DNA from: Lishizhenia sp. | Lineage (GTDB): Bacteria; Bacteroidota; Bacteroidia; Flavobacteriales_D; Crocinitomicaceae | DNA: 47,447 bases | Assembly: GCA_007117055.1 (NCBI GenBank) | Contig: SKHH01000038.1 | Span: 1-47,447 of the forward strand | Reading direction: 5' to 3' | In this document: piece after piece, positions 941 through 46,531 of the stretch | Layout of the letters: the number at the start of each line of letters is the position of its first letter | Numbering within the stretch: the first letter of the stretch is position 1 | Program-made: the position numbers and the translations under genes | The notes under the pieces: model-generated | What the model saw: the letters and a program-made list of their open reading frames with translations, nothing else | Database searches by the model: none | Told to the model about the DNA's origin: nothing

Positions 941-975
941 CAATGAGTTGGTGGGGAGAGTTTAGTGGATTTTAG
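941..975 (-). promoter_or_regulatory. intergenic motif copy
   Basis: caatgagttggtggggagagtttagtggattttag, abutted by the 10-bp palindrome arms 908..917/931..940. Confidence 0.6.
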
Positions 976-980
976 GGCAT

Positions 981-1010
981 AAAAAAAGCCAGACATTTCT
1001 ATCTAGCTTT
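981..1010 (-). terminator. rho-independent terminator
   Basis: aaagccaga/tctagcttt hairpin (G.U on the minus sense), then T7. Follows 1046..1525. Confidence 0.65.
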
Positions 1011-1045
1011 ACACATGAACTTTCTTATGTGTTTATGTGTGAGAG

Positions 1046-1525
1046 TTATTTTAGGTATACCATATCTACCAATTCAGATACTGGAGCACCTTCATTTAGT
1101 TTTTTAGCAAACTCTAAAAGAAGTTTAGCTTTCTTATTGCGATTACCTTCAATTTGCAAAGTAAATGCATTTATGCGGCTCTTCATGGTCATTTTGGTAA
1201 TGCCTTGAGATTGCATAATAGTTTCATTTCTTTGTCTTTGTTTAATATCCATTTGCACCAGTTCCCATAGGGAGAGTGTAGGATTTTCTTTTTTTTGTGT
1301 ATCGATGATTCGAATCACTCTAGTTGCAGGTATTAAACCATCTTCAATTGCTTTTAGAACTGGCTTTGGAGCTTCTGCTAATGAGATATATTTATAGACT
1401 GCTGGTTCAGATTTATCACATTTAGCAGCAATGTCTTTCACGCTCATTCCACGACGAAGTTTGAGGTCAAGAAAGTAACGACCTGCTTCTAGGGGGTTGT
1501 TGAAATTTTTTCTAATGTTAGGCAT
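1046..1525 (-). CDS. ParB/KorB-type HTH domain protein (no N-terminal ParB/Srx domain)
   Basis: RGMSVKDIAAKCDKSEPAVYKYISLAEAPKPVLKAIEDGLIPATRVIRI resembles the ParB central HTH plus the L..LP..v...l..g motif. Terminator follows at 981..1010. Confidence 0.6.
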   Translation of the reverse strand: MPNIRKNFNNPLEAGRYFLDLKLRRGMSVKDIAAKCDKSEPAVYKYISLAEAPKPVLKAIEDGLIPATRVIRIIDTQKKENPTLSLWELVQMDIKQRQRNETIMQSQGITKMTMKSRINAFTLQIEGNRNKKAKLLLEFAKKLNEGAPVSELVDMVYLK

Positions 1526-1672
1526 GGCTATATGTTTTATCTACTATCATAACTTTGAAACCTATAAAAAGTTCTTAAAAAGTTATGAACAATTTAAAGT
1601 TGATGCAAATTTACGATTTTTTTTGTAATAAACAATAAGATTATTAGTTTAATATGTTAAAAACAGCGAAAG

Positions 1673-1698
1673 AAAAAAGGGAGCTAAAATTAGCCCCC
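1673..1698 (-). terminator. rho-independent terminator
   Basis: gggagctaa/ttagccccc hairpin (G.U on the minus sense), then T6. Follows the ParB-like gene. Confidence 0.6.
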
Positions 1699-1731
1699 TC
1701 CTTTCAAACCACATATTGGTTTATTTGTTGC

Positions 1732-2655
1732 TTACGCCTCGTTTGAGACTTCAGCTCCAACCACCAGAGCGAGGATGTCTTGTTTCGAGGTATCACCTTT
1801 GAGTGCGGCATCCAATTGGATGAGCATTTTAGCTCCTTCTGTTGGCGAGTCTACAACTTCGCTGATAATTTCAGCTAATTTCTGGTTGTAGCTTTTCTCA
1901 GCAAAAGGCACTTTTTTGGTTTTCCCTTTTTTCAGGGTTGATTTGGTGGCTTTGGCTTGTTTCTTTTTGCCATTACCTTTCCCTGGGTTTGCTTGTGGCG
2001 CTTCTGCAGCTTGTGCTTTTGCATCTTCAATAGCCACATTGACAGATTCAATCAATTCCTCTTCACTTGAAGTTTCAGACATAATTTGTCGAACAGCTGT
2101 GAGGGAGATTTCATCATTCTGCACTTTCACTTGCACTTCTTGTGGTGCTTTAAAGAGAGAAGCATAGTTGTAGAAGGTGGCTTGTGAAATGTTCATCACA
2201 CCACACGTGTAGTCACGCACTTCTTTTGCAGTAGCTTCTGGGTTTTGTGCCAAGAAAGCATTCGACAGTGCGTCTGCCAATTCTGCATTTTCAACGTCTG
2301 TGAAAGACTTTCCACTGTTAGAAGTGGCTTGCTGCTCCAGACGGCTCAACAGGTCTTCAGAAGTTGGAATGAAAGGAAGAGAAGGAACCCCTGCTTTACG
2401 AGCGAGACGTACACGTCGTTCTCCATCGGTAATTACAATATTCCCAGTCTTACGGTCACGAAAACCTGTAACAGGAGGAATTTTGTAAGGGTCTTCTTGA
2501 AAGGTTCGAGCCAAACGGTCAGCCTCTAACTGGGTAATCCCAAAGTCTTTGCGTTTGTTGAAACCTTCTTCTACGACGAATTCGTCGATTTGCTTAAGAG
2601 TTGCCTTCTTGTAAGGCGCTGTCCCCTCAGGGATTTGGATTTGATTTTTGCTCAT
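1732..2655 (-). CDS. ParB-like protein (ParB/Srx N-terminal domain plus HTH)
   Basis: NIVITDGERRVRLARKAGVPSLPFI matches the ParB GERR box. Downstream NISQATFYNYASLFKAPQEVQVKVQNDEISLTAVRQI is HTH-like. Lys-rich linker. Terminator follows. Confidence 0.8.
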   Translation of the reverse strand: MSKNQIQIPEGTAPYKKATLKQIDEFVVEEGFNKRKDFGITQLEADRLARTFQEDPYKIPPVTGFRDRKTGNIVITDGERRVRLARKAGVPSLPFIPTSEDLLSRLEQQATSNSGKSFTDVENAELADALSNAFLAQNPEATAKEVRDYTCGVMNISQATFYNYASLFKAPQEVQVKVQNDEISLTAVRQIMSETSSEEELIESVNVAIEDAKAQAAEAPQANPGKGNGKKKQAKATKSTLKKGKTKKVPFAEKSYNQKLAEIISEVVDSPTEGAKMLIQLDAALKGDTSKQDILALVVGAEVSNEA

Positions 2656-2749
2656 GGCAATTTGAAATTAAATGGTTTGTATGAAAGTATACGAGAATTG
2701 AACTATAAAGTTACACTATATTCTCATTTTTTTTTTTCTTTTCTTTTTT

Positions 2750-3328
2750 CTACTTAAACACTTTAGGGTCAATGCCTAATGAAATGTAGTAGTCTTGCAT
2801 AAGGATTTTATATCCTTGCAGTTGCTGTTTTTGGATTGCTGCTACAATTAACTTGATAGCACTTGGTGGGTTTCCTGTTTTTTTGAACAGATTTGCGATG
2901 CTGCTTGCACCATATAATGTACTTATGTACATTTTCCCATCTTTTTCTATGAGCAACCCTTTTTTTGCGAGTTTCAACATTTCTTTTTGTTCAATAAAAT
3001 GGGAGACAGCAAAATCTAAGTTGTCATTCACTTCAAATGTACTGCCTGTGCCTGTGTCAATTTTGACTTTGGGCAGTTTTTTAAATTCTTCTTCTAACTT
3101 TAGAAGTAGTTGTCGGTTTTGTTTCAGTTTTGTAGACGGTTCATAATCACCGTTTGGTTTTCTATCAATAGAGCCAATGGGATTTACATCAGGCATTCCG
3201 CCATTTCCATCATCATAGTAATTAGCAATTTGTTTCCCTTGGTATTTTACAACACAACGAATTACTGTCCCTTCATGCCCTTCCATGGTTTGCATTTTCG
3301 AAAATGTTACTGGTATTCCTTTATACAT
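2750..3328 (-). CDS. hypothetical protein (start corrected)
   Basis: Track ORF 2750..3427 reads through motif copy 3357..3387. First ATG after the motif is MYKGIPVTF at 3328. Confidence 0.6.
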   Translation of the reverse strand: MYKGIPVTFSKMQTMEGHEGTVIRCVVKYQGKQIANYYDDGNGGMPDVNPIGSIDRKPNGDYEPSTKLKQNRQLLLKLEEEFKKLPKVKIDTGTGSTFEVNDNLDFAVSHFIEQKEMLKLAKKGLLIEKDGKMYISTLYGASSIANLFKKTGNPPSAIKLIVAAIQKQQLQGYKILMQDYYISLGIDPKVFK

Positions 3329-3356
3329 TGGGATATTGTTTTTGGGTTTGTGATGG

Positions 3357-3387
3357 CAATGAGTTTCAAGGGAGAGTTTGGTTATCC
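3357..3387 (-). promoter_or_regulatory. intergenic motif copy (block 1 degenerate)
   Basis: caatgagtttcaagggagagtttggttatcc. Confidence 0.5.
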
Positions 3388-3690
3388 TTTTTCTATTAAC
3401 CTTATAGAATTCATCTGTGAATGCCATATTCTCGCTTCCCTTTTACCAACTTTTCCATTAGAATTAAAAAGGCGAACCATGTAATATTGTGGATACACAC
3501 CTGAAAACTCTATCATAAAAATCAAGCCTTTTCTCACAGTTGTACCATCCACCCATTTAATGGTGTCTCCAATGTCAAAGCCATGTTTTTCAACAAAATT
3601 ACGTTCATTTATTATTCTTTGCTTTCTTCTGTTTTCAGATAGCAATTCGATGAGGCTTTGTTCTTCTTGTTGAAGTTGTTCTAAATTCAT
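3382..3690 (-). CDS. hypothetical protein
   Basis: ORF track 102 aa. Stop lies inside motif copy 3357..3387. Confidence 0.65.
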   Translation of the reverse strand: MNLEQLQQEEQSLIELLSENRRKQRIINERNFVEKHGFDIGDTIKWVDGTTVRKGLIFMIEFSGVYPQYYMVRLFNSNGKVGKREARIWHSQMNSIRLIEKG

Positions 3691-4066: not shown

Positions 4067-4090
4067 GGGAATAAGTATTGATTATGACTA

Positions 4091-4125
4091 CAATGAGTTG
4101 ATGGGGAGAGTTTGGTGGATTTTAG
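4091..4125 (-). promoter_or_regulatory. intergenic motif copy (consensus-like)
   Basis: caatgagttgatggggagagtttggtggattttag, 24 nt from ATG 4066. Contains the TAA of 4122..4568. Confidence 0.7.
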
Positions 4126-5906: not shown

Positions 5907-5961
5907 GGGGATAAGTGTTTAATTTGGTTGCAATGAGTTATGGATGAGTGTTTGGTGGATT

Positions 5962-6336
5962 TTAGTATTCAACATCATCTTCGGTTTCATCATTCCATTT
6001 TTCTTCTGTAATGATATACCCCATTCTGTTAACAATATGCAACCCTTTTGAAATGTACCAGATAGGCTCTAAACCTTGTTCTACTGCTTCATTTTGCGCC
6101 TTTCCACAGCAACAAACTTCTTCTTGTTCATTACAATCACACTTAAAGTTATCAACAAAAGTGTCATAAGGATTGTCATCGTTGACAATAACTGTCCAAA
6201 TGTTGCGTACATCTTGTTCTAAAACAAAAGCAAGTTCTTCTCCATAGGTTTCAAACACAATTCCGTCTATGGGTGTTTCTGGGTTGAGATGATTTTGGAT
6301 TGGTTTAAAGTGTTTTTCGAAATCTTCGTATTGCAT
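5962..6336 (-). CDS. hypothetical Cys-cluster protein
   Basis: ORF track. Contains CDCNEQEEVCCCGK cluster. Motif-flanked. Confidence 0.7.
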   Translation of the reverse strand: MQYEDFEKHFKPIQNHLNPETPIDGIVFETYGEELAFVLEQDVRNIWTVIVNDDNPYDTFVDNFKCDCNEQEEVCCCGKAQNEAVEQGLEPIWYISKGLHIVNRMGYIITEEKWNDETEDDVEY

Positions 6337-6386
6337 GATGATGGTGTTTATGTCTTTAATGAGTTAATAGGGAGAGTTTGGTGGAA

Positions 6387-7007
6387 TTAAAATCGTTCCT
6401 GAAGGTTCAGTTCTACAGCAAACTTTTCCATCTTATTTTTGGCTCGATGCAATTGTATTTTTACTGTACCGATTGGTTTCCCAATAATTTCTGCAATTTC
6501 ATCGTATGAAAGTTCTTCAAAATAACGCAATTCAATGATTTTTTTCATTTGAGGAGATAGCATATCTATCAAGTCACGCACCATGTCTTTACGTGCGTTT
6601 ATGTGAATCGCTTCCTCTGGGTTTGGTTCCGAATCTTTCAGGCTCATCATTAATTTATGAGAACGAAGATTATTATCAGCTACTTCATTGGTCAATGGGT
6701 CTTTTAAAGACACAATATCCAGTTTTCTTTTACGTTTCACGTCGATGACGTGGTTGTTAGCGATTTTGAACACCCATGTAGAAAACGCTTTAGTAGGTTG
6801 ATATTGGTCAATGTGAGAGAAAACTTTTTCCCAAACTTGTTGCACAATATCCTCTGCTTCTTCAACTTGTCGCACCATTTTAGAAACAAAAAACAAGAGG
6901 CTACGATTAAATCGTTTTACCAACAGTTGGCTTGCTATGTTTTTTTCGCGTTCTGTGCTGTTTCCTTGGAGAATAGCAACTTGGGCTTCTACATTCAATT
7001 CTTTCAT
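6387..7007 (-). CDS. RNA polymerase sigma factor, sigma-70 family, ECF-like (group 4)
   Basis: Region 2: AEDIVQQVWEKVFSHIDQY...FSTWVFKIANNHVIDVKRKRK. Region 4: LSPQMKKIIELRYFEELSYDEIAEIIGKPIGTVKIQLHRAKNKM. Motif copy 7013..7046 lies just upstream. Confidence 0.9.
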   Translation of the reverse strand: MKELNVEAQVAILQGNSTEREKNIASQLLVKRFNRSLLFFVSKMVRQVEEAEDIVQQVWEKVFSHIDQYQPTKAFSTWVFKIANNHVIDVKRKRKLDIVSLKDPLTNEVADNNLRSHKLMMSLKDSEPNPEEAIHINARKDMVRDLIDMLSPQMKKIIELRYFEELSYDEIAEIIGKPIGTVKIQLHRAKNKMEKFAVELNLQERF

Positions 7008-7012
7008 ATCTA

Positions 7013-7046
7013 CAATGAGTTGCTGGGGAGAGTTTGGTGGATTTAA
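7013..7046 (-). promoter_or_regulatory. intergenic motif copy upstream of the sigma-factor gene
   Basis: caatgagttgctggggagagtttggtggatttaa, 5 nt from ATG 7007. Confidence 0.7.
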
Positions 7047-7444
7047 AGTTCTTCAAAAAGTGGTTTAATTGCTATTACATTTTCTCGTCGCTCTATCATA
7101 ACCCGAAAACGCCCAAACTTAGCATCATAAACTTCATGTGTTTCAATAGATTCATCTAACACAATCGGTTTTTGATTTTTATTCTTAGAACTCCAATCAC
7201 TCATTAAGTGATTAAGGTCAAGAACATCAAAAGAAACAACCTCTATTGGGGTTTGATTTACTGTTTCAACAGGATAAACTTGGACACCTTCTCGTGTGAG
7301 ATACTGGATATAACCTCCTTCCAAAACTTCTCCATAGTTAATAATGGAAGTCATGTTAACTTTACGCTTACCTTCTGGTGTTGATTTTGATTTATAAATC
7401 TCCATCAAGATAAGGTGAGTATTAGATGTATTTAGTCGATTCAT
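7043..7444 (-). CDS. hypothetical protein
   Basis: ORF track. Motif-flanked. Confidence 0.7.
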   Translation of the reverse strand: MNRLNTSNTHLILMEIYKSKSTPEGKRKVNMTSIINYGEVLEGGYIQYLTREGVQVYPVETVNQTPIEVVSFDVLDLNHLMSDWSSKNKNQKPIVLDESIETHEVYDAKFGRFRVMIERRENVIAIKPLFEEL

Positions 7445-7480
7445 ATCTACAATGAGTTATGGATTGGAGTCTGGTGGGTT

Positions 7481-7921
7481 TTAGAGAGCATTTAAGTCTC
7501 CGTCAAAATATGTGGGATTTTCGATATCATCCCCAAAATATAATTGCAATGGCACATTTGGGAATGCTGTTTCAGCTTCTTTTTGCGTTCCAAATACCCC
7601 GAAAGAAGGAAAGTTGGCAGCAATCACATCTGAGTGAGATAAATCGGGTTGCCAATAGCTTTCAACTTCCTCTGCGATATTTACTTTGGAAATGAATACC
7701 CAATCATTCATCCCTACTGTTTCTTCTAAGTTATATGCAAGCAAAAAATCTGATACTGAATATGCATTACCTAATGATGCTGCTCGTTGCATGAACTCAA
7801 AAGCTTCTTTTGGCATTTTGCCGCCTGCATCTTCAATTTCAGACCATTCTTGAATGGTATAAGCATCGGTGCTAACTTTGTCGTCATCTGCACTTAAAAC
7901 GTAAACTGTAAGATTTTTCAT
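7481..7921 (-). CDS. hypothetical acidic protein
   Basis: ORF track. Motif-flanked. Confidence 0.7.
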   Translation of the reverse strand: MKNLTVYVLSADDDKVSTDAYTIQEWSEIEDAGGKMPKEAFEFMQRAASLGNAYSVSDFLLAYNLEETVGMNDWVFISKVNIAEEVESYWQPDLSHSDVIAANFPSFGVFGTQKEAETAFPNVPLQLYFGDDIENPTYFDGDLNAL

Positions 7922-7957
7922 GTCTACAATGAGTTATAGGTTTGAGTCTGGTGGGTT

Positions 7958-8200
7958 TTAGAGATATTCTTCTCCATAAACCTCTACCAACTTTTCTATG
8001 ATGGCGTTTTCTGCTTCTTGTGGATTGTTGGCTTCTTGAGAAAAAAGAGAGGCTATGCTATAAATTGTTTCTGGGTCGCCTTGATTCCAGTCATGTTTCT
8101 CATCTTCTCCTGTCCGATAGAGATGATTTTTGTTTTTTTTGCGTTCAGCCTCATTTAAAGACATTTGTACAACTTGCTCTATAGACAAAAACGTTTCCAT
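7958..8200 (-). CDS. hypothetical protein
   Basis: ORF track. Motif 8219..8252 upstream. Confidence 0.7.
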   Translation of the reverse strand: METFLSIEQVVQMSLNEAERKKNKNHLYRTGEDEKHDWNQGDPETIYSIASLFSQEANNPQEAENAIIEKLVEVYGEEYL

Positions 8201-8218
8201 TGGGTTTATTTTTTTGAG

Positions 8219-8252
8219 AATGAGTTATGGATTGGGGTTTGGTGGATTTTAG
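8219..8252 (-). promoter_or_regulatory. intergenic motif copy
   Basis: aatgagttatggattggggtttggtggattttag. Confidence 0.65.
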
Positions 8253-8280: not shown

Positions 8281-8311
8281 TTTGGATTTGGTTTAGAATT
8301 TTATAATTTTG
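8281..8311 (+). promoter_or_regulatory. host-type (Bacteroidota sigma-A-like) promoter for the tRNA island
   Basis: TTTG at 8281..8284, 19-nt spacer, TAATTTTG (TAnnTTTG) at 8304..8311. First tRNA starts at 8325. Confidence 0.45.
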
Positions 8312-8324: not shown

Positions 8325-8396
8325 TGCGCGGTGGAGAAGTGGTATCTCGTTAGGTTCATATTCTAAAGTTCGGCGGTTCGAATCCGTCCTGCGCTA
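8325..8396 (+). tRNA. tRNA with CAU anticodon (Met or lysidine-Ile)
   Basis: Hand-folded cloverleaf. D stem gaga/tctc; anticodon stem ttagg/tctaa; loop ttCATat; T arm ggcgg-ttcgaat-ccgtc; acceptor tgcgcgg/ctgcgct with a U1.U72 mismatch. Confidence 0.7.
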
Positions 8397-8516
8397 CGAA
8401 GTCAAAAGACAAAAAAAGAAGTAATGAACTACGTTATTAGCATGATTGAACAGGAACGTGAAGAGGAAGCTCTTCTGTCTGGTCGTGCTATGTAATTAAT
8501 TTAAGATTTACAGAGA

Positions 8517-8545
8517 AGCTCGACCAAGTTGGTCGGGCTTTTTTG
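8517..8545 (+). terminator. rho-independent terminator (plus strand)
   Basis: agctcgaccaa/ttggtcgggct hairpin followed by T6. Confidence 0.6.
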
Positions 8546-8558
8546 TTGCCGTTAATAT

Positions 8559-8630
8559 GCTGCAGTAGCTTAAAGGTAGAGTCGGAGTTTTTCAAACTCT
8601 TGGGTGTGGGTTCGATTCCCATCTGCAGTA
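8559..8630 (+). tRNA. tRNA, anticodon UUC (reads Glu GAA), non-canonical body
   Basis: Acceptor gctgcag/ctgcagt; D arm gctt-aaaggta-gagt; anticodon arm ggagt-ttTTCaa-actct; T arm gtggg-ttcgatt-cccat. Confidence 0.7.
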
Positions 8631-8647
8631 CTAAATTTGTTATTTTA

Positions 8648-8721
8648 CGCCCCATCGTCTAGTTGGCCTAGGACGGTGCCCTTTCACGGCATTAACACGG
8701 GTTCGAATCCCGTTGGGGTGA
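8648..8721 (+). tRNA. tRNA-Glu (UUC), canonical bacterial Glu-type body
   Basis: cgcccca-tc-gtct-agttggccta-ggac-g-gtgcc-ctTTCac-ggcat-taac-acggg-ttcgaat-cccgt-tggggtg-a. Closely resembles the E. coli tRNA-Glu layout. Confidence 0.85.
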
Positions 8722-8731
8722 CTTATTAAAA

Positions 8732-8803
8732 GCTGCAGTAGCTTAAAGGTAGAGTCCTTCCTTCTCACGGAAGTGGGTGACGGTTCGAATCCGTTCTGCA
8801 GTT
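8732..8803 (+). tRNA. tRNA, anticodon CUC (reads Glu GAG), paralogue of 8559..8630
   Basis: Same acceptor and D arm as 8559..8630. Anticodon arm cttcc-ttCTCac-ggaag; T arm gacgg-ttcgaat-ccgtt. Confidence 0.7.
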
Positions 8804-9172
8804 CTATTCTTGCAGTTCATCTGCATTTACAAGAACGGTGTCCAAATCTAATATTGGAAGGCGGTCAATTTGAATAATACTAATTTCAAAAATTCCTGCG
8901 TTTTCTAGGAATACTTGCAAAGAACCGCTGATGTGTCGAATTGCGCTGATGTGTCGAATTGCAAGGTCTGCAAAATTGAAATCGCAAGCGGAGTTTTCCC
9001 ATGCTTCTTTTCCTTCTGGGGTTTTCTTTACCCAGTTGGTAAGAGTTGTTTTTAGGGAGTTAACGACAGAATTGGCATCTTCATGTTGAGATGATACTTC
9101 ACAAGTGTATATCATTATAACGTTTTCTTCTGAATTTCGTCGTTCTGCGATAAAGGAAATCTCTTTTGCCAT
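8804..9172 (-). CDS. hypothetical protein with in-frame 18-bp tandem duplication
   Basis: ORF track. AIRHISAIRHIS is encoded by the perfect repeat 8927..8962. Motif about 9194 upstream. Confidence 0.7.
   Translation of the reverse strand: MAKEISFIAERRNSEENVIMIYTCEVSSQHEDANSVVNSLKTTLTNWVKKTPEGKEAWENSACDFNFADLAIRHISAIRHISGSLQVFLENAGIFEISIIQIDRLPILDLDTVLVNADELQE
8927..8962. repeat. perfect 18-bp tandem duplication (2 copies)
   Basis: gctgatgtgtcgaattgc occurs twice, at 8927..8944 and 8945..8962. Confidence 0.95.
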
Positions 9173-9223
9173 TGTATTGTGATTTGTGCTACAAATGAGT
9201 TTTTAGGGAGAGTTTAGTGGGTT

Positions 9224-9817
9224 TTAAGATTCTTCTTCATCTTCTATTGATAGAAGTTTAAAGAATCTTTTAACTGCTCTTTCTGCTATTTTCTTCGCTT
9301 CTTCTATAGATTCATGTTTTCCTAAGTCGCTTTTAATCGCAGGGAGAAAACAGGTTGCTTGATAGCGTTTTGTTTCTCCCCTTGAAACGAATGCACTATA
9401 AAATACGGAAGCAACTTTTACTTTGCCAATGTATAGTTTATTGTCTTTCCATTTCAATATGCCGTTATCTTCATTGACAATTTCGACCCCTTCTTCTAAG
9501 TTTGTTCCATCCAAATCAATGGATGCTGGTCGAACAATAACTTCTCCGAATTTTGTGTAATACACTCCAGAGGGAACAATACGCTCTTTAAAGTCATCAA
9601 AGTCAGTGCTACTGATTCGTTCTTCTGACTCTAATTTTCCCACTGTTACCCAATCAAAGACGATAATGCCTTCATTTTCTCGAACGTCTTGAATAGCATC
9701 GTTATCTTGACGAGCTAGTTTAATTGCTTGTTCAACATCTTCTGCAAGTCCAATAAATCGTTCACTGCTTTGTGATTGATGTATGTCGGTGTGAGTTATT
9801 TTTACTAATCGTTTCAT
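9224..9817 (-). CDS. hypothetical protein (C-terminal domain shared with 9853..10101)
   Basis: ORF track. Motif-flanked. C-terminus is KWKDNKLYIGKVKVASVFYSAFVSRGETKRYQATCFLPAIKSDLG... Confidence 0.7.
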   Translation of the reverse strand: MKRLVKITHTDIHQSQSSERFIGLAEDVEQAIKLARQDNDAIQDVRENEGIIVFDWVTVGKLESEERISSTDFDDFKERIVPSGVYYTKFGEVIVRPASIDLDGTNLEEGVEIVNEDNGILKWKDNKLYIGKVKVASVFYSAFVSRGETKRYQATCFLPAIKSDLGKHESIEEAKKIAERAVKRFFKLLSIEDEEES

Positions 9818-9852
9818 GACTTCAATGAGTTTTTAGGGAGAGTTTGGTGGAT

Positions 9853-10101
9853 TTAATCTTCTATTGATAGAAGTTTTAAAAATCGATTTACTCCTGTTTC
9901 TACTTGAGTTTTAGCTGCATCTTTGGTTTCAAACCTACCCAAATCACTTTTAATTCCAGGGAGAAAGCAAGTTGCCTGGTATTTTTTAGGGTCTTCTCTT
10001 GAAATGAAAGATGAATAATGCACTGAACCAACTTTTATTTTGCCGACATACAGTACATCGTCTTTCCATTTTAAGGGAGATATAGAGATATTTTGTTTCA
10101 T
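9853..10101 (-). CDS. hypothetical protein, tandem paralogue of the 9224..9817 C-terminus
   Basis: KWKDDVLYVGKIKVGSVHYSSFISREDPKKYQATCFLPGIKSDLG. Confidence 0.7.
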   Translation of the reverse strand: MKQNISISPLKWKDDVLYVGKIKVGSVHYSSFISREDPKKYQATCFLPGIKSDLGRFETKDAAKTQVETGVNRFLKLLSIED

Positions 10102-10415: not shown

Positions 10416-10475
10416 GTTATTAAAGTGATTTTAAAGAGATTGTTCGGTGGATTTTAGAATCGAATGATTCATAGA

Positions 10476-10688: not shown

Positions 10689-10933
10689 TATGCTTGAAAT
10701 TTAGGGTTTGGGTTTTTGATTATATTAAAATCTGAATAAAACACCTTAATAAGTTTCTCGCGGGTGTCTATAAACCCATCTTCTACACCTTCACGGGGAA
10801 CGACTCGCATAGGAAGTCTGTAAGTGCAAGACACAAAACTTTGTCCTTTGTCGTGATTTTGACAGTGATTAGTGGTGAAGAACATTTCTTTTGTTTCTTC
10901 GTTGCTGATTGTTATAATTGTTGTTTCTTTCAT
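10688..10933 (-). CDS. hypothetical protein
   Basis: ORF track. Variant motif 10940..10974 upstream. Confidence 0.65.
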   Translation of the reverse strand: MKETTIITISNEETKEMFFTTNHCQNHDKGQSFVSCTYRLPMRVVPREGVEDGFIDTREKLIKVFYSDFNIIKNPNPKFQA

Positions 10934-10939
10934 GTGGTT

Positions 10940-10974
10940 AATGAGTTTCAGTAACAGGTTTAATGGGTTTTAAG
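10940..10974 (-). promoter_or_regulatory. intergenic motif copy, variant class (..GGTTTAATGGGTTTTAAG)
   Basis: aatgagtttcagtaacaggtttaatgggttttaag, 6 nt from ATG 10933. Confidence 0.6.
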
Positions 10975-11870: not shown

Positions 11871-11953
11871 GGTCTATGTGTTTAATATGAACAAAAAACG
11901 GTTCTTCTTATTAGTTCGAGGGCAATGAGTGCTGAAATTTGGTTTGGTGGAGT

Positions 11954-12340
11954 TTACCCCAGCTCTTTTATGGCCTCAAGAATAACAGGCATTCGTTGGT
12001 CATATTTTAAAACTCGACGACGAGGATAGTCATCTGACTTCCCAAGTTTTTGACAAACCAATTCAGAAAGGGCATTGAGTTTTTCTTCCTCATTTTCGTC
12101 TGTCCAACTTTCTGGAAGTTCTACAATAATGTAGAGAGTCCCACAATTTCCATTTTCACCCAATAAAACCCCGTTGCGGAATCCTAGAAGTGTGTGGTTG
12201 AGGTTCATTTTTGCAGTTCGATTTCCAGAAAACTCTGGTATCCAAAGCGTATTACAAGTTCCTTTTGGATTTGACACTCGTCCTCGATTTGGGCCTTGTA
12301 TGCCCAATAGGGATGTGTAGTAATGTTCTAATTGATTCAT
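11954..12340 (-). CDS. hypothetical protein
   Basis: ORF track. Motif near 12347 upstream. Confidence 0.7.
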   Translation of the reverse strand: MNQLEHYYTSLLGIQGPNRGRVSNPKGTCNTLWIPEFSGNRTAKMNLNHTLLGFRNGVLLGENGNCGTLYIIVELPESWTDENEEEKLNALSELVCQKLGKSDDYPRRRVLKYDQRMPVILEAIKELG

Positions 12341-12433
12341 GTCTAAAATGAGTTGTGTTTTTGTGTTTGGTGGAGTTTAGAAACTTAAAATATCGTTAAT
12401 AAACTTTTTTACAACAATTGAAATTGTACCACC

Positions 12434-12661: not shown

Positions 12662-12760
12662 AATTTATAGATTTGTCAACAATGAGTTATTAGGGAGAGT
12701 TTGGTGGGTTTAAATTTACAAATCAAACTAAATAGGTGCTATACTGTAGCGCCAAGCGAG

Positions 12761-13410: not shown

Positions 13411-13443
13411 CGGATATTTCTTTAAGTTTCTTTTCTATGTTTA

Positions 13444-13477
13444 CAATGAGTTATTAGGGAGAGTTTTGTGGGTTTAA
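13444..13477 (-). promoter_or_regulatory. intergenic motif copy
   Basis: caatgagttattagggagagttttgtgggtttaa. Confidence 0.65.
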
Positions 13478-33610: not shown

Positions 33611-33643
33611 AAAAAAAAGAACGGGTTTTTAGCCCGTTCTTTT
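33611..33643 (-). terminator. rho-independent terminator
   Basis: gaacggg-tttttag-cccgttc, T8 on the minus strand. Identical to 44343..44372. Confidence 0.8.
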
Positions 33644-34373: not shown

Positions 34374-34431
34374 AATGTTTTGTTTGTTCTGAAATTAATG
34401 AGTTACCTTTCGGTGTTTGGTGGATTTTAAG

Positions 34432-34750: not shown

Positions 34751-34912
34751 ACGTATAAATTTAAATGGTTATGTATGTATAACGACCGCACATCTAAAAC
34801 TTAGACAAGAAAAAGACAAAAAAAACAACTTTTTTTTCAATGGACGTTAAAATCTAACAAGACACAGTTATCCATAAAGAATGAGTGTTCTTTTTTAGTT
34901 TAGTGGATTTAA

Positions 34913-34967: not shown

Positions 34968-35300
34968 TTATTCTACTTCTTTGAAATCCGAAACATCAAT
35001 TCCCAGGTTTTCTAGCTTGGCTACAATAGCTTGAGAAAGCTCAAAAACACCATCGTAATCAACTAATACACCATCGGTGAACCAAAGACCGCCAGAAGCA
35101 TACCATGCGTTTCCTCCTGTCTTGACATCTGAAATTTCGAAAGTTCCGTAATCTTCATTTTCGAGTTCTACTGAAATATCCAGTTCAACATCGTGTTCTT
35201 TGTTAATAACTGCATAAGCTGTTTCAAGTGAAACGTGCATTTTTTCTTTCCAAACTTCTTTGTGAGGAAAGCTAAGTGTTTTGTTCGTTTTTTTCTCCAT
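34968..35300 (-). CDS. hypothetical protein (start corrected)
   Basis: ATG MEKKTNKTLSF at 35300. Motif near 35307. Confidence 0.65.
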   Translation of the reverse strand: MEKKTNKTLSFPHKEVWKEKMHVSLETAYAVINKEHDVELDISVELENEDYGTFEISDVKTGGNAWYASGGLWFTDGVLVDYDGVFELSQAIVAKLENLGIDVSDFKEVE

Positions 35301-35325
35301 GCAATTAATGAGTGCAAGAAATGAG

Positions 35326-35691
35326 TTAAGTGGAAATAAGAATGAAATCTTCTTGTGTTTCCTTGATGCCATTTAAGATAATAGGACAGGTAGAGTTGAT
35401 GTTCTTAAAGAAACGTGGCGCACTACTTCCTTTTTCATCTTGAAAAACCACAAACCAGTAATAGCCACCCTTCCAAAAATGAACGTTAACACTATTGACA
35501 GTATAAACTTCCCCATTGCGCAAAAATTTCTTGCCATACAATTCATGAGAAACTACACGTCCGTTTTCTCCTAAATGCATATTCAGAGCAAAACAATATC
35601 TCTTGCTTCGTAAGCCCTCTTTTGCTCTGGCTCTTACAACATTAGAATAATGTTCTTCATTAAAACGAACTCCGTTGGGCAACTGTTTCAT
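35326..35691 (-). CDS. hypothetical protein
   Basis: ORF track. Motif near 35696 upstream. Confidence 0.65.
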   Translation of the reverse strand: MKQLPNGVRFNEEHYSNVVRARAKEGLRSKRYCFALNMHLGENGRVVSHELYGKKFLRNGEVYTVNSVNVHFWKGGYYWFVVFQDEKGSSAPRFFKNINSTCPIILNGIKETQEDFILIST

Positions 35692-35695
35692 ACCT

Positions 35696-35830
35696 CTAAT
35701 GAGTTTTAGTTTCTCGTTCGGTGGTTTTAACGTTAGAAAATTTACGATGAAGTTTTCGAGCAGCTTTATAGGCTACTAAATCAAAACTTCCATCAGGTCG
35801 ATAAAATCCTTGAGTACTTGGTTCCTTCAT
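35696..35830 (-). CDS. 44-aa basic protein (start corrected)
   Basis: ATG MKEPSTQGFYRPDG at 35830. Motif 35836..35869 upstream. The track N-terminus is read-through. Confidence 0.4.
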   Translation of the reverse strand: MKEPSTQGFYRPDGSFDLVAYKAARKLHRKFSNVKTTERETKTH

Positions 35831-35870
35831 GTTTACAATGAGTTCAAAAAATAAGTTTGGTGAAAATAAC

Positions 35871-35962: not shown

Positions 35963-36196
35963 TTAATTTTTTTGCCTTTGCAATTGACAGATATGCTGAA
36001 ACCTTTTGGTAGATAGTTCATTGTACCTTTGATAGGTAGCATCTTCCTCCATTTCTTTTGTGACAACCAATGAAAAAGCTCCTTGAAATAATTCTCGTTT
36101 CAAAAGAGCCAACTCAAATGCCTCATCTAAAGTAAGACCCGTTTTCAATAAACTCGCTGAATTAGCACGTTGTAATGCTTGGTTAATTTTTTTCAT
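35963..36196 (-). CDS. hypothetical protein (start corrected)
   Basis: ATG MKKINQALQRANSA at 36196, just after the motif near 36203. The track ORF to 36529 overlaps 36246..36668 out of frame. Confidence 0.55.
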   Translation of the reverse strand: MKKINQALQRANSASLLKTGLTLDEAFELALLKRELFQGAFSLVVTKEMEEDATYQRYNELSTKRFQHICQLQRQKN

Positions 36197-36245
36197 GACT
36201 CCAATGAGTTTTAAGTAAGAGTTTGGTGGATTTAAACAATTATGA

Positions 36246-36668: not shown

Positions 36669-36731
36669 AACTGTTGTTGTGTGCTTTTTTTGTTCGACTA
36701 CAATGAGTTTATGGGGAGAGTTTAGTGGGTT

Positions 36732-36995
36732 TTAACACTCCAATAAAGACAAAATATATACTCCATCATCAAACCCAAGTTCTGAAAAAGGATACGATTG
36801 CAAATCCCCTCCAAGGTCTTCAAAAATGACCTCTTTCTCCAGAGATACGCCAACTATGGTATTATTGGCTTCATCAGTAAAACTGTTCTCCAAATTAAAA
36901 CAACCTCCTTCTTTTTGGCTAAGCTGTTCGTTGATGGATTCCGTCAGTTTTGACTTGAGTGCTTGAAACTCTTGGGATAATTTAGTGCTATTCAT
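36732..36995 (-). CDS. hypothetical acidic protein
   Basis: ORF track. Motif near 37001. Confidence 0.7.
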   Translation of the reverse strand: MNSTKLSQEFQALKSKLTESINEQLSQKEGGCFNLENSFTDEANNTIVGVSLEKEVIFEDLGGDLQSYPFSELGFDDGVYILSLLEC

Positions 36996-37030
36996 GCTTT
37001 CAATGAGTTTAAAGGGAGAGTTTGGTGGGT

Positions 37031-37849
37031 TTAAGAAAACGCTTTTTTAATTGCTTTATTATTCACTTTCGCATACTCATTAATTGCCGTTTTTAAGTTC
37101 ACATCAAAATAACAGCTTTCGAGATTTGCGTAAATTTTTGCTAATTCTTCAGACAAACCGCGTGAACGAAGATAAAAAATCTTATCCTTGTTGCGTGAGG
37201 TAAATAAAGAACGAACTTTTACAACTCCTTTCAATGACTTGTTTTTTATGTAATCTACATACTCATTAATGTCCACAATTTCGTACTCATAAGGTGTTAC
37301 ATAGACTTTTTGCGTTTTAGTTCTCCAATACCATACTTCATACGGTTGAAACCCAATTATCGCCAATATAGAAGCCTTTAAACTCTTAGAACGTATTGAA
37401 CTTATATCTTCTAAGGTGTTACCCTCCAAAGTCTTATTGATTGATTTTAAAAGACGTTCGCTTTGAGAAATGTAGTTGTCTTGCAACTTGATTTTTCGCG
37501 TTGCCTTTCGAGCAAAATGAATTTGGTATCCATTTTCTGTCCTTACTTTAATCCAAGCGCCTTTGCCATTTTCCAATTCTTTTTCGGGTGAAGGAAAATA
37601 GTTTGAAAAGTCAAACATATCCAAATTGCTCAACCAAAAATCTTCTTGCTCCTGAGTGAAATCTAAGCCTTCTATATGCTCATCAAAAAGGTCTTGTGGT
37701 GTAATTATTTCATAGGAAATAGCATCAATCAATTGCTCAACTGTTTCAAGTCGATGACCAGTACGTAAAAAGTACAAAGAAGAAAATGATTTGAAAGCAT
37801 CTGACTTTACAAATCTTTCAATTATTGTGCTGTATTTTTTGAAATCCAT
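37031..37849 (-). CDS. hypothetical protein (start corrected)
   Basis: ATG MDFKKYSTII at 37849. Motif near 37873. Confidence 0.75.
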   Translation of the reverse strand: MDFKKYSTIIERFVKSDAFKSFSSLYFLRTGHRLETVEQLIDAISYEIITPQDLFDEHIEGLDFTQEQEDFWLSNLDMFDFSNYFPSPEKELENGKGAWIKVRTENGYQIHFARKATRKIKLQDNYISQSERLLKSINKTLEGNTLEDISSIRSKSLKASILAIIGFQPYEVWYWRTKTQKVYVTPYEYEIVDINEYVDYIKNKSLKGVVKVRSLFTSRNKDKIFYLRSRGLSEELAKIYANLESCYFDVNLKTAINEYAKVNNKAIKKAFS

Positions 37850-37936
37850 GCCTATTTTGTTTGTTCTGAACACAATGAGTCTTGTGCAGGTGTTTAGTGG
37901 ATTTAAGAAAACACTTTTACACCAATAGATTAAACC

Positions 37937-38107: not shown

Positions 38108-38150
38108 ATAAATTGTTTTTAAAAAGACTTCAATAATACTCACAATGAGT

Positions 38151-38471
38151 TCAAAATTTCTGTTTGGTGGATTTAAAAAATTGAACGGTAATTTCAGTCC
38201 ATTTTTTTACCGCATCATGCTCTTCCGCATCAACATATTCACCGCTATCTCCTGTTATTCGAATCTTCGATTTTTCTTCGTCAGTCAAAGAGTTAACAAA
38301 TGAATTTATAGCATCTTCCACAGAAACATCAGAAGAAAATCTTTTGGGCATTCCCGTAATAGGGCAAAAACCTTTTGCAGAAGCTTCCTTTGCTTGACTA
38401 GCGACAATTTCTTCATCACTAACATAGTCAATATAAAAGTGCTTTTCAAACTTCTGAATAATACTTTCCAT
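38151..38471 (-). CDS. hypothetical protein
   Basis: ORF track. Motif near 38488. Confidence 0.7.
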   Translation of the reverse strand: MESIIQKFEKHFYIDYVSDEEIVASQAKEASAKGFCPITGMPKRFSSDVSVEDAINSFVNSLTDEEKSKIRITGDSGEYVDAEEHDAVKKWTEITVQFFKSTKQKF

Positions 38472-38518
38472 TTCCTTCGGTTTTGACTAATGAGTTCCAA
38501 ATTTCTGTTTAGTGGATT

Positions 38519-38617
38519 TTAGGGCCAACCCATTTTCCAACCTTTTGGAACTTTATTGTCATCGCAATGAATGCGTTCAATAAAACCTGTTCGTGGACAT
38601 TTTCTGTGAATCTTCAT
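38519..38617 (-). CDS. 32-aa protein (start corrected)
   Basis: ATG MKIHRKCPRTGFIERIHCDDNKVPKGWKMGWP at 38617. Motif near 38623. Confidence 0.4.
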   Translation of the reverse strand: MKIHRKCPRTGFIERIHCDDNKVPKGWKMGWP

Positions 38618-38660
38618 AACATCAATGAGTATCCGTGTAAAGTTTGGTGAATTTAAGAAA

Positions 38661-38733: not shown

Positions 38734-38994
38734 TCAATCAAAAATACTATCTTCTTCTGTGAACGTCTTACCATTTTCCAGTCGCATGGTGAATACGTCA
38801 AAACAATCTTCACCCGTTTCCTCTAAATACGCTTCATAAGCCTGTAAAGGACTGTTGGGGTCAATGTTTTCCAAGGGTTCAACAATCTCAAAACTTCCTT
38901 CCTCCTGTGAGTTAATGGTAGCCTCTGGGTATTGTTCCTTTAGCTCCTCCAAAGTTCTTGAAGTTTGAACCGAAAATGTAAGTGTTCCTTTCAT
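38734..38994 (-). CDS. hypothetical acidic protein
   Basis: ORF track. Motif near 39001. Confidence 0.7.
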   Translation of the reverse strand: MKGTLTFSVQTSRTLEELKEQYPEATINSQEEGSFEIVEPLENIDPNSPLQAYEAYLEETGEDCFDVFTMRLENGKTFTEEDSIFD

Positions 38995-39030
38995 GCCTTC
39001 AATGAGTTCTGGGTGTTGGTTTGGTGGGTT

Positions 39031-39471
39031 TTAACTCAAATAATTAAAAACCATTTCTGCAGTTATATTGACGCATTCAACAGATTCTGACCAATCGTTT
39101 TCAATTCGTGAAAATTTTATCACATGAAATATGTTGTCATCTTCTTTCCCAATGTAAATAGCTTCTTGATTGTCGCTATTCAGTTGTATCAACATTTCTT
39201 CCAAACCGCTTGTAATAGCATGGAATTTTTCAGAAGATTTAAACTCCTTAAACTCTTCTTCCAAAGAATTTGAAACACCTTTTGGCAAGTTTGAAAAGTG
39301 TGTTACCTCTGGGATGGTGGTCGTAAAATTGTCAGATAAGACAAAGTTCCCATTCATAAAAGCTGATTCTGTTACGCCAAACTTATATTTGACCAGATAC
39401 TTGCGATTCTCTTGTGGTGAATTAGATTCAACTGAGTTCCAAATCAATGTTTCTTTAAAATCTCTTTCCAT
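39031..39471 (-). CDS. hypothetical protein
   Basis: ORF track. Motif 39477..39510 upstream. Confidence 0.7.
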   Translation of the reverse strand: MERDFKETLIWNSVESNSPQENRKYLVKYKFGVTESAFMNGNFVLSDNFTTTIPEVTHFSNLPKGVSNSLEEEFKEFKSSEKFHAITSGLEEMLIQLNSDNQEAIYIGKEDDNIFHVIKFSRIENDWSESVECVNITAEMVFNYLS

Positions 39472-39514
39472 ATCTACAATGAGTTCAAAAATCCCATTTG
39501 GTGGGTATAAAGAT

Positions 39515-39753: not shown

Positions 39754-39811
39754 TGTTTCTGTTAATCATGTACAATGAGTGCTCAATTTGTTTTTAGGGA
39801 ATTTAAGAGGC

Positions 39812-39845: not shown

Positions 39846-39903
39846 GATGCTAAAACATGAAAACAAATAAACAGACAAGGAAAAAAGGTTAGTTCGTGCC
39901 TAT
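39846..39903 (-). ncRNA. candidate small RNA (motif-to-terminator unit without ORF)
   Basis: 58 nt between motif 39904..39937 and the terminator hairpin. The only ATG is followed by TTT TAG. Shares TTTCATGTTTT with the 16.1-kb unit. Confidence 0.3.
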
Positions 39904-39937
39904 AATGAGTTCAAGAATCCCATTTGGTGGGTTTTAT
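39904..39937 (-). promoter_or_regulatory. intergenic motif copy (orphan)
   Basis: aatgagttcaagaatcccatttggtgggttttat. Confidence 0.6.
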
Positions 39938-40263
39938 TTTCGACGTTTACGAGGATTGTTCAACTCTTGATATGAAGCCAAAAACTTCTTTGGGTTTTGG
40001 CGCTGTACAACACGCAATGTGTAACCAATGTTTTCAAGTTCTTTTTTGAGGTCGGCATATTCATCTTCTGTTGCTATTACAGAGCTTCTTATACAACCTT
40101 TGTAATCCGCACTTGAGTGTTGCCCTACGTGCTGATAGCAAGTTACATTCCCTGAAAAATCAGCAGCCTCGTGAGGGAAAAGTGCAAAAATTTCACCTTC
40201 AAATTCTTTTGTGGTTTCTTTACGAAATACCACATCAGTTATTTGTTCTTTTTTCTGTTTCAT
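39934..40263 (-). CDS. hypothetical protein
   Basis: ORF track. Motif 40268..40302 upstream. Confidence 0.7.
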   Translation of the reverse strand: MKQKKEQITDVVFRKETTKEFEGEIFALFPHEAADFSGNVTCYQHVGQHSSADYKGCIRSSVIATEDEYADLKKELENIGYTLRVVQRQNPKKFLASYQELNNPRKRRK

Positions 40264-40276
40264 ACTTTTAATGAGT

Positions 40277-40312
40277 TAAAAAAAACGGAGTGGTGGATTT
40301 AAACCACCCCGT
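40277..40312 (-). terminator. rho-independent terminator whose stem is built from motif block 1
   Basis: acggagtggt/accaccccgt at 40285..40312, then T8 on the minus strand. Overlaps motif 40268..40302. Confidence 0.6.
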
Positions 40313-40748: not shown

Positions 40749-40809
40749 ACTGTTTTTGTTTTGTTCTGCTTACAATGAGTTACAAGGAAAAGTTTGGTGG
40801 GTTTAAGAT

Positions 40810-41193
40810 TTACATTTGACCTAATCCAGAACTAGAAAATGGGTGGTCATCATCATATGGGTCAACATCGTAAATGGCTTCACCAAATTCATCATAAGCA
40901 ACTCCATGAATAATCTCATAGCCCTCAGAGGTGAGCCTTGGTCTTACAGAGCCTCTTTCTTCCATTTGACGTGCTTTGTAAGAAGCATTTGCGGGTGAAA
41001 TGCGTGTTGTGTTGTTGCGTTTTTTTGGGTCTACCGTGTTCCAGTATTTATCTTTACATACGGTTTTGGGTTGGCTTTTACAAAAAGCTTGTTGGTAATG
41101 CGTTTTAATGAATTGCGTACCACATGAAGGGCAAATGCAAGTTTCACCTACATTGCTTTTTTTGTTTAACTGGTATCTGGCTTTCATTTTCAT
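40810..41193 (-). CDS. zinc-ribbon protein
   Basis: CICPSCGTQF...FCKSQPKTVCKDKYW Cys pairs. Motif 41199..41233 upstream. Confidence 0.7.
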   Translation of the reverse strand: MKMKARYQLNKKSNVGETCICPSCGTQFIKTHYQQAFCKSQPKTVCKDKYWNTVDPKKRNNTTRISPANASYKARQMEERGSVRPRLTSEGYEIIHGVAYDEFGEAIYDVDPYDDDHPFSSSGLGQM

Positions 41194-41206
41194 GCCTACA
41201 ATGAGT

Positions 41207-41515
41207 TTAAGGTTTGAGTTCGGTGGAATTAAAAATTACAATTCCCAAAATTTTTTCCAACTTCAAACCTAAAGAAAAAGAGAAATCAAATTTTCCTTTC
41301 CTCAAACTCTTTACATCTTCAACAGAAATATCTAGTTGTTCAGCAAGTTCCTCAATGCTTAGTCCTTTTTCTTCCATAGCTATGATAATATCAATAGCAA
41401 TGACACCTAAAAGACGAAACATCTGGCGGTTTTTTTTGCGCTTTCTCATATTCTGAGCCGTCTTGCTGTCATGAGAAACAAGTGCATCAAATTTTTTCCT
41501 AGTTTTCTTGTCCAT
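41207..41515 (-). CDS. XRE-family helix-turn-helix protein
   Basis: MEEKGLSIEELAEQLDISVEDVKSLRKGKFDFSFSLGLKLEKILG. Confidence 0.7.
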   Translation of the reverse strand: MDKKTRKKFDALVSHDSKTAQNMRKRKKNRQMFRLLGVIAIDIIIAMEEKGLSIEELAEQLDISVEDVKSLRKGKFDFSFSLGLKLEKILGIVIFNSTELKP

Positions 41516-41969: not shown

Positions 41970-41993
41970 TTCTGTATTTGTTTGTTACACTAT

Positions 41994-42028
41994 CAATGAG
42001 TTGCTGGTTTGAGTTTGGTGGCTTTAAT
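41994..42028 (-). promoter_or_regulatory. intergenic motif copy
   Basis: caatgagttgctggtttgagtttggtggctttaat. Confidence 0.65.
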
Positions 42029-42251: not shown

Positions 42252-42273
42252 AGTTGTTTGTTTGCTTCATAGA

Positions 42274-42308
42274 CAATGAGTGCCAAGGGAGAGGTTTGGT
42301 GAATTTAA
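42274..42308 (-). promoter_or_regulatory. intergenic motif copy
   Basis: caatgagtgccaagggagaggtttggtgaatttaa. Confidence 0.65.
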
Positions 42309-42331
42309 GAATCATAAAAAATATGTACAAT

Positions 42332-42363
42332 AAAATCCACCAAACCTGACAAATATACTCATT
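42332..42363 (+). promoter_or_regulatory. intergenic motif copy in antisense (plus) orientation
   Basis: aaaatccaccaaacctgacaaatatactcatt, back to back (23 nt) with 42274..42308. Faces terminator 42405..42440. Confidence 0.55.
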
Positions 42364-42404
42364 ACTTGTGAGAAAATCTATCTTATAGGGAGAGATATAT
42401 TAAC

Positions 42405-43051: not shown

Positions 43052-43117
43052 TGTATTGTTTGTTTGTTCTAATTACAATGAGTTCATAAACCCAGTTTAG
43101 TGGATTTTAAATTGAAC

Positions 43118-43423: not shown

Positions 43424-43479
43424 AATTCCTGAATGTTTGTTCTGAATACAATGAGTTCTAAAATTTGGTTCGGTGGATT

Positions 43480-43653
43480 TTAATCTTCCAAAAACCCTTG
43501 TTGCTCTAATTGTTGGTCAAGTTCTAAGTGCAATGCCTTAAAAGTATTTCCAGAATCAATGCTTAATTTTTCACGAGAAACTTCTGCAGCCAATAAAGCT
43601 TCTTTTAAGCTATTGACCTCTGCTTCTGTTAAAGAGATGGTGTAATTTTTCAT
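43480..43653 (-). CDS. hypothetical 57-aa protein (start corrected)
   Basis: Track start is a TTG in the leader. ATG MKNYTISLTE at 43653. Motif near 43678. Confidence 0.6.
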   Translation of the reverse strand: MKNYTISLTEAEVNSLKEALLAAEVSREKLSIDSGNTFKALHLELDQQLEQQGFLED

Positions 43654-43707
43654 GCCACTATTTGTTTGTTCTGTCAACAATGAGTGTATGATTTTGATTT
43701 AGTGGAT

Positions 43708-43938
43708 TTACTTTCTCCTATTTATTCTCCTTTCTATTTTAGATACAACTACTTTGACTGTTATAAGACTGATTAAGTAACCTAAACACCCAGTGAATAA
43801 CAATACTCCAAAAAATAAAAAACGTTCACTACGACCAAGAAAAACATTAAATATGCCTATGCAACCAATAATAAAAACTACAATTGAAATAAACAAACAA
43901 ATTACCAGAAGATAAAAAGTGATTAGTTTATTTTTCAA
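43708..43938 (-). CDS. membrane protein (2 TM segments), apparent TTG start
   Basis: ORF track. LITFYLLVICLFISIVVFIIGCIGIF and FFGVLLFTGCLGYLISLITVKVV. No in-frame ATG near the 5' end. Confidence 0.5.
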   Translation of the reverse strand: MKNKLITFYLLVICLFISIVVFIIGCIGIFNVFLGRSERFLFFGVLLFTGCLGYLISLITVKVVVSKIERRINRRK

Positions 43939-44194: not shown

Positions 44195-44215
44195 ATTCTT
44201 TTCTTTATCTCTACA

Positions 44216-44248
44216 ATGAGTTAAAGGGAGAGGTTTAGTGGATTTAAG
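44216..44248 (-). promoter_or_regulatory. intergenic motif copy
   Basis: caatgagttaaagggagaggtttagtggatttaag. Confidence 0.65.
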
Positions 44249-44271
44249 AAAACATCTTTTTTGTAACACTT

Positions 44272-44302
44272 AAATCCACTAAACTGGACAAATGTACTCA
44301 TT
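44272..44302 (+). promoter_or_regulatory. intergenic motif copy in antisense (plus) orientation
   Basis: aaatccactaaactggacaaatgtactcatt, 23 nt from 44216..44248. Faces terminator 44343..44372. Confidence 0.55.
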
Positions 44303-44342
44303 CTCTTGGGGAAATTGTACCCCATAGGGAGAGAAAGGTTAA

Positions 44343-44372
44343 CAAAAAAAAGAACGGGTTTTTAGCCCGTTC
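44343..44372 (-). terminator. rho-independent terminator
   Basis: gaacggg-tttttag-cccgttc, then T8 on the minus strand. Confidence 0.8.
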
Positions 44373-44399
44373 CTTAAACTTTCTCGCAAAGGGAGAGGA

Positions 44400-45281: not shown

Positions 45282-45317
45282 GATAACTGGGTTTAAAAGA
45301 TTGTTTATTCTTAACTT

Positions 45318-45352
45318 AATGAGTTGCCTCTCGGTGTTCGGTGGGTTTTAAC
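45318..45352 (-). promoter_or_regulatory. intergenic motif copy (2 of 3)
   Basis: Identical to 45133..45167. Confidence 0.65.
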
Positions 45353-45390
45353 TTCAAATTATTTTCTGTATTTCCACTCTACTTGAACTT

Positions 45391-45425
45391 AATGAGTTGC
45401 CTCTCGGTGTTCGGTGGGTTTTAAC
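45391..45425 (-). promoter_or_regulatory. intergenic motif copy (3 of 3, no ORF before copy 2)
   Basis: Identical core to 45133..45167. Confidence 0.6.
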
Positions 45426-45435
45426 GTTATAAATT

Positions 45436-45472
45436 CACTAAAACTCACTAAACTCTTTTTTGAAACTCATTG
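45436..45472 (+). promoter_or_regulatory. intergenic motif copy, plus orientation (first plus-strand gene)
   Basis: ..actcactaaactcttttttgaaactcattg, 28 nt upstream of ATG 45501. Confidence 0.55.
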
Positions 45473-45500
45473 ATTTCAGAACAAACAATAAAATACAACT

Positions 45501-45818
45501 ATGAACGCAAGTGATGTTTTAGTATTCGAGCCGCAAAATCGTTATCCAATAAAAGGAAACGAAATACAAATTGCAACTACAAATTACAAAGGGGTGCTGA
45601 TTACAGAGAGAACTTTCTTCCCTTGGAACCCGTTTAAAAACATTGTAGTAACCTATATTGTAGATTTAGTGTTGCCTATGGATACTGTTGTTGAAAATGG
45701 TGAAATGGATGATGCTTACTACACAGATGAAGGGTTTGGACTTCCCGTGTTTTCAGAAAAAGGTGGTTGTATTCTTGAAGAAGTCTTAAAGTTTATTGAC
45801 CAATACAAAGGTGGTTAA
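45501..45818 (+). CDS. hypothetical protein
   Basis: ORF track. Motif copies at both ends in plus orientation. Confidence 0.7.
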   Translation: MNASDVLVFEPQNRYPIKGNEIQIATTNYKGVLITERTFFPWNPFKNIVVTYIVDLVLPMDTVVENGEMDDAYYTDEGFGLPVFSEKGGCILEEVLKFIDQYKGG

Positions 45819-45849
45819 TATCCACCAAACCCAAAATTAAAACTCATTG
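45816..45849 (+). promoter_or_regulatory. intergenic motif copy, plus orientation
   Basis: taatatccaccaaacccaaaattaaaactcattg. The TAA of the preceding gene is its first triplet. Confidence 0.65.
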
Positions 45850-45876
45850 ATTTCATAACACAATAACAATCATATC

Positions 45877-46128
45877 ATGTCAGACGTTAAAGTTTCTACC
45901 GCTATTCTTTCTCACTTGTCAGACGTCCAAACTCACTTGGAGTTGGCTCTTAATTCTCAAAACCTGATAACACAACACGTTGCCAGTGAAGAAGCAAGAC
46001 AAAGAATCAACTTTGTGAAGATGCTTATTTTGAAATACCCCGACACTTCAGTTAGCGTTTCTAACGACAAGTTAGATGAAATTCAACGAGAAGTTTTTGA
46101 GCGTTTTCCAAAAAAGGCGGTTTCTTAA
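45877..46128 (+). CDS. hypothetical protein
   Basis: ORF track. Motif-flanked. Confidence 0.7.
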   Translation: MSDVKVSTAILSHLSDVQTHLELALNSQNLITQHVASEEARQRINFVKMLILKYPDTSVSVSNDKLDEIQREVFERFPKKAVS

Positions 46129-46158
46129 AACCACCAAATCAAACCTTAGCACTCATTA
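46126..46158 (+). promoter_or_regulatory. intergenic motif copy, plus orientation
   Basis: taaaaccaccaaatcaaaccttagcactcatta. Confidence 0.6.
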
Positions 46159-46186
46159 ACAGTATAACCAATAAACATTACAAGTT

Positions 46187-46501
46187 ATGTACAAGTCAGA
46201 AAAAACTGCTAAACTGAAAGAATTGCTTGAAGGGTTAACTGATTACTCAAATAAACAACTGATTTTTGATGCCGATGATAAAAGCCATTTAGAAATTTTG
46301 TCAGAGGCGGGTGAGCTTGCGCGTGATTTATCACGAGGTATTTTTGTGCCTGACTTAAATGGAAAAAAAGCCATTGAGTTTGCAAAAGAACTATTGGAAA
46401 AAGGCGAAAAAATCCAAGCCGTTTATGTCATTAAAAGAGAGTTGGGGATGGGTTTAAGAGAAGCAAAAGAATTTGTGGATAACGGTTTTAAGGTTTCTTA
46501 A
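46187..46501 (+). CDS. hypothetical protein with a ribosomal L7/L12 C-terminal-like segment (tentative)
   Basis: EKGEKIQAVYVIKRELGMGLREAKEFVDNG compares with the L7/L12 pattern K.avIKavRe.tGlgLkEAKdlVe. Confidence 0.65.
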   Translation: MYKSEKTAKLKELLEGLTDYSNKQLIFDADDKSHLEILSEAGELARDLSRGIFVPDLNGKKAIEFAKELLEKGEKIQAVYVIKRELGMGLREAKEFVDNGFKVS

Positions 46502-46531
46502 AATCACCAAACCAAACCTTAGCACTCATTA
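46499..46531 (+). promoter_or_regulatory. intergenic motif copy, plus orientation (last copy in window)
   Basis: taaaatcaccaaaccaaaccttagcactcatta. Confidence 0.6.

Follow-up and report, generated by a model that had tools for sequence, protein, structure and literature searches.

A two-block repeat before most genes of apparently phage-like Bacteroidota DNA is probably a promoter and marks seams of cassette exchange

Why should a short, strand-locked repeat precede gene after gene on a stretch of DNA from an uncultured Bacteroidota? We addressed this question in a window of 47,447 nucleotides, for which an earlier note had listed 83 minus-strand positions and a total of about 93 copies of a bipartite element. 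A 55-nt weight matrix (PWM), iterated from 25 seeds to convergence, found 91 copies, 84 on the minus and 7 on the plus strand, with scores of 22.7–65.4 bits, compared with a top score of 6.7 bits in 20 shuffles. It recovered 82 of the 83 listed positions; the only one missed, 32152, turned out to be a true copy whose spacer is 1 nt shorter, bringing the total for this 40-base two-block signal to about 92. Two weak copies, with 3' ends at 10423 and 39773, were added to the earlier list. When the 21-mer GGGAGAGTTTGGTGGATTTTA was searched with up to three mismatches, we obtained 23 matches versus 0.01 expected. The repeat is therefore real and far above chance expectation (Table 1).

The core of the element is TWAAAYCCACCAAAC-N10-AACTCATTG, with two blocks 22 bp apart and a spacer that is fixed in length and unconstrained in sequence. 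Of 91 copies, 90 carry the heptamer ACTCATT without a mismatch, and the distance between it and CCACCAAAC is 11 nt in 91 copies and 10 nt in the remaining one, so the variable spacer of 4–6 nt described previously does not hold. The same is true for TCTCCC, which had been included in the universal consensus; it occurs in only 26 of 91 copies and represents an optional third module. A pyrimidine–purine (YR) step lies 6 nt past block 2, with or without an ATG at that position. The orientation of the copies tracks that of the genes and, as reported, flips at 45.43 kb, where copies 45384–45423 (minus) and 45439–45478 (plus) stand back to back.

With regard to placement, the element had been said to precede almost every gene. 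Most genes do carry a copy, although a mechanical count puts one before 71 of 102 ORFs that are 50 aa or longer; once over-extended starts and shadow ORFs on the antisense strand are set aside, we estimate about 75–80 of 95 real genes, or roughly four-fifths. The stop codon of the upstream gene does coincide with the TAA of the element, not usually but in about half of the cases (35 of 68 copies for which the upstream ORF is clear). Start codons were expected 5–30 nt past CATTG, but their distribution is bimodal and not smooth: the ATG lies exactly 5 nt past CATTG, at the predicted +1 purine, in 41 of 91 copies, and otherwise at least 16 nt past it (at least 11 nt beyond +1, mostly 12–28), almost never between; one copy, at 7 nt, is the exception. 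As noted earlier, ORF calls do over-extend through the element (in the frame NPPNSP..LIE) at copies where the TAA and the ATG that follows are in different frames, as in ORFs 14305–14772 and 25296–26048.

Among the three roles proposed for the element, that of a phage- or element-specific promoter, with each gene forming a transcription unit of its own, is best backed by the sequence evidence. We consider it probable that the element is an element-specific, sigma-dependent promoter. This reading is favoured because the two-block geometry is combined with a YR step whose distance is constant, because start-codon spacing is bimodal, because ORF-less copies keep their place in a relative, and because a resident ECF-type sigma gene (6387–7007) has its own copy in two genomes. 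Three ORF-less copies point backwards, and two of these occupy the same place in the relative. If the predicted +1 is the start-codon purine, many messages would start exactly at the ATG; we infer both this transcription start site position and the assignment of a sigma factor to the element from the DNA sequence.

The second proposal, a recombination scaffold for gene cassettes, finds support too, in the sense of an evolutionary consequence. The element is kept in four related metagenomic lineages, and we compared cassettes with one relative of about 80–88% identity (L032). Whole cassettes were inserted, deleted or replaced between the two, with breakpoints inside elements or at most about 13 nt from them. 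The elements also serve as seams for gain, loss and movement of whole genes. A similar pattern is seen with T4 PeSLs. A 360-bp cassette missing from L032 is bounded by copies 19421–19460 (downstream) and 19781–19820 (upstream); a cassette indel maps to copy 18609–18648, a cassette replacement has its boundary at copy 21669–21708, and L032 carries an extra empty unit of 146 bp at copy 22400–22439. In addition, the gene after copy 36695–36734 has its homologue 18 kb away in the L032 order. Block 1 and the spacer are identical throughout the minus-strand tandem triplet (45126, 45311 and 45384), and the short ORF behind copy 29005–29044 is a decayed paralogue of that at 27148. The third proposal, an RNA processing or translational-coupling site, is disfavoured, as we found no predicted structure in the element RNA, some copies have no ORF, and copies whose ATG lies 11–28 nt off still have the YR step.

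Returning to the promoter reading, the DNA encodes two ECF-type sigma factors, one of which (sigma-1) has its own copy of the element in both genomes. Sigma-1 matches NCBIfam TIGR02937 with 114 bits (cut-off 42.9), and its orthologue in the relative is 56% identical and has the same upstream element; it is a candidate for the factor that reads the element. The label "phage" given to this DNA is putative: phage-type accessory genes are present, but no structural phage genes were found on the 61-kb contig, which has a TonB-dependent receptor gene at one end. We regard the DNA as an apparently phage-like mobile element. In contrast to the element, the sequence before the tRNA island is a host-type Bacteroidota primary-sigma promoter.

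Table 1. Copies of the element and other features of the window. Rows are copies unless the remarks name another feature. Start: +1, ATG at predicted +1; number, leader length (nt).
Position	Strand	PWM (bits)	TCTCCC	Start	Remarks
935..974	-	33.6	yes		next ORF 86 nt past predicted +1; terminator-like hairpin 1010-985 precedes
3351..3390	-	23.3	yes	23	degenerate block 1
4085..4124	-	53.5	yes	19	upstream ORF stop is its TAA
4593..4632	-	47.8	yes	25	upstream stop is TAA
5128..5167	-	43.7		25	upstream stop is TAA
5603..5642	-	22.7		17	block 1 shifted 1 nt
5925..5964	-	44.3		19	
6351..6390	-	48.5	yes	15	sigma-1 stop is its TAA
6387..7007	-				sigma-1 gene: ECF-type sigma-70 family factor, 206 aa; Pfam Sigma70_r2 and r4_2
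7007..7046	-	54.2	yes	+1	before sigma-1 gene; same layout in relative
7444..7483	-	49.4		+1	
7921..7960	-	55.1		+1	
8212..8251	-	42.7		12	
8281..8311	+				host-type promoter, TTTG-N19-TAnnTTTG, before tRNA island
8325..8804	+				tRNA-Met and three tRNA-Glu genes; strand opposite gene array
9187..9226	-	46.2	yes	15	
9817..9856	-	56.2	yes	+1	
10417..10456	-	25.0			weak; 2 block-2 mismatches; ATG 2 nt past predicted +1
10933..10972	-	40.9		+1	
11917..11956	-	28.1		47	
12340..12379	-	41.7		+1	
12674..12713	-	49.5	yes	13	
13438..13477	-	54.8	yes	28	
13989..14028	-	45.1		+1	
14086..14125	-	31.3	yes		lacks an ORF of its own; lies 97 nt before next copy's gene
14718..14757	-	58.6	yes	+1	
15676..15715	-	49.4		+1	
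16070..16109	-	35.4		+1	terminator-like hairpin 16149-16114 directly before
16215..16254	-	33.3			no own ORF
16625..16664	-	48.0		+1	
16898..16937	-	47.0		+1	
17245..17284	-	46.5	yes	+1	
18194..18233	-	65.4	yes	+1	best consensus match
18609..18648	-	52.8	yes	+1	
19421..19460	-	48.9		+1	
19781..19820	-	47.4		+1	
20589..20628	-	49.5		+1	GP88-like gene
20942..20981	-	33.4		+1	
21669..21708	-	46.7	yes	+1	
22119..22158	-	46.2		+1	
22400..22439	-	43.1		+1	
22756..22795	-	44.6		15	
23206..23245	-	48.6		+1	
23464..23503	-	48.4		+1	
24558..24597	-	54.2		+1	PAPS-reductase-like gene
25259..25298	-	43.2	yes	14	
25940..25979	-	53.1	yes	+1	
26482..26521	-	57.9		+1	
26986..27025	-	44.4		+1	
27148..27187	-	47.5		+1	41-aa ORF
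28474..28513	-	42.6			no ORF, decayed cassette; ATT replaces ATG at +1
29005..29044	-	49.7		+1	ORF of 17 codons only
30670..30709	-	46.3	yes	+1	1-nt shifted
31310..31349	-	50.9	yes	13	
31659..31698	-	43.1	yes	13	
32145..32183	-				spacer 1 nt shorter; aaaatCCACCAAACttatttttgaACTCATTaaag; missed by ungapped PWM
32440..32479	-	41.5	yes	20	1-nt shifted
33102..33141	-	39.8		54	
33335..33374	-	42.9		17	
33476..33515	-	28.1			back to back with 33537-33576 (+)
33537..33576	+	30.2			no ORF; points at minus gene 33666-34373 from its 3' side
33576..33643	+				candidate transcript of ~68 nt, from orphan copy; GGGAGAG; would end at bidirectional terminator hairpin
34390..34429	-	44.4		17	
34873..34912	-	26.6			next ORF 123 nt downstream
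35300..35339	-	36.7		+1	
35691..35730	-	37.3		+1	
35830..35869	-	40.4		+1	
36196..36235	-	57.3		+1	
36695..36734	-	50.5	yes	27	
36995..37034	-	60.2	yes	+1	
37867..37906	-	41.6		18	ATG 37849
38137..38176	-	37.2		30	
38482..38521	-	33.1		11	
38617..38656	-	41.3		+1	32-aa ORF
38994..39033	-	55.0		+1	
39471..39510	-	41.5		+1	
39767..39806	-	26.7		14	weak
39897..39936	-	38.1			no own ORF; ACG replaces ATG at +1
40263..40302	-	41.6		+1	
40767..40806	-	55.9		19	
41193..41232	-	56.1		+1	
41988..42027	-	48.6		19	
42268..42307	-	31.8	yes	17	1-nt shifted; back to back with 42331-42370 (+)
42331..42370	+	35.9			toward 3' end of SprT-like minus gene 42458-43051; sole downstream ORF antisense to it; position kept in relative
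43070..43109	-	46.0		19	
43443..43482	-	47.4		20	
43672..43711	-	36.3		19	
44208..44247	-	48.4	yes	14	back to back with 44270-44309 (+)
44270..44309	+	27.4			no ORF; points at minus gene 44400-45092 from its 3' side; position kept in relative
44309..44376	+				candidate short transcript; GGGAGAG; would end at bidirectional terminator; region aligns with 33536-33665 over 130 nt at 84% identity
45126..45165	-	43.5		34	third of tandem triplet
45311..45350	-	35.0			tandem triplet; then only 35-aa ORF
45384..45423	-	32.4			tandem triplet; empty 73-bp unit
45439..45478	+	47.6		23	first of plus arm
45816..45855	+	48.1		22	
46125..46164	+	40.4		23	
46498..46537	+	42.7		~20	ATG 46557; 14 nt if earlier TTG/GTG counted

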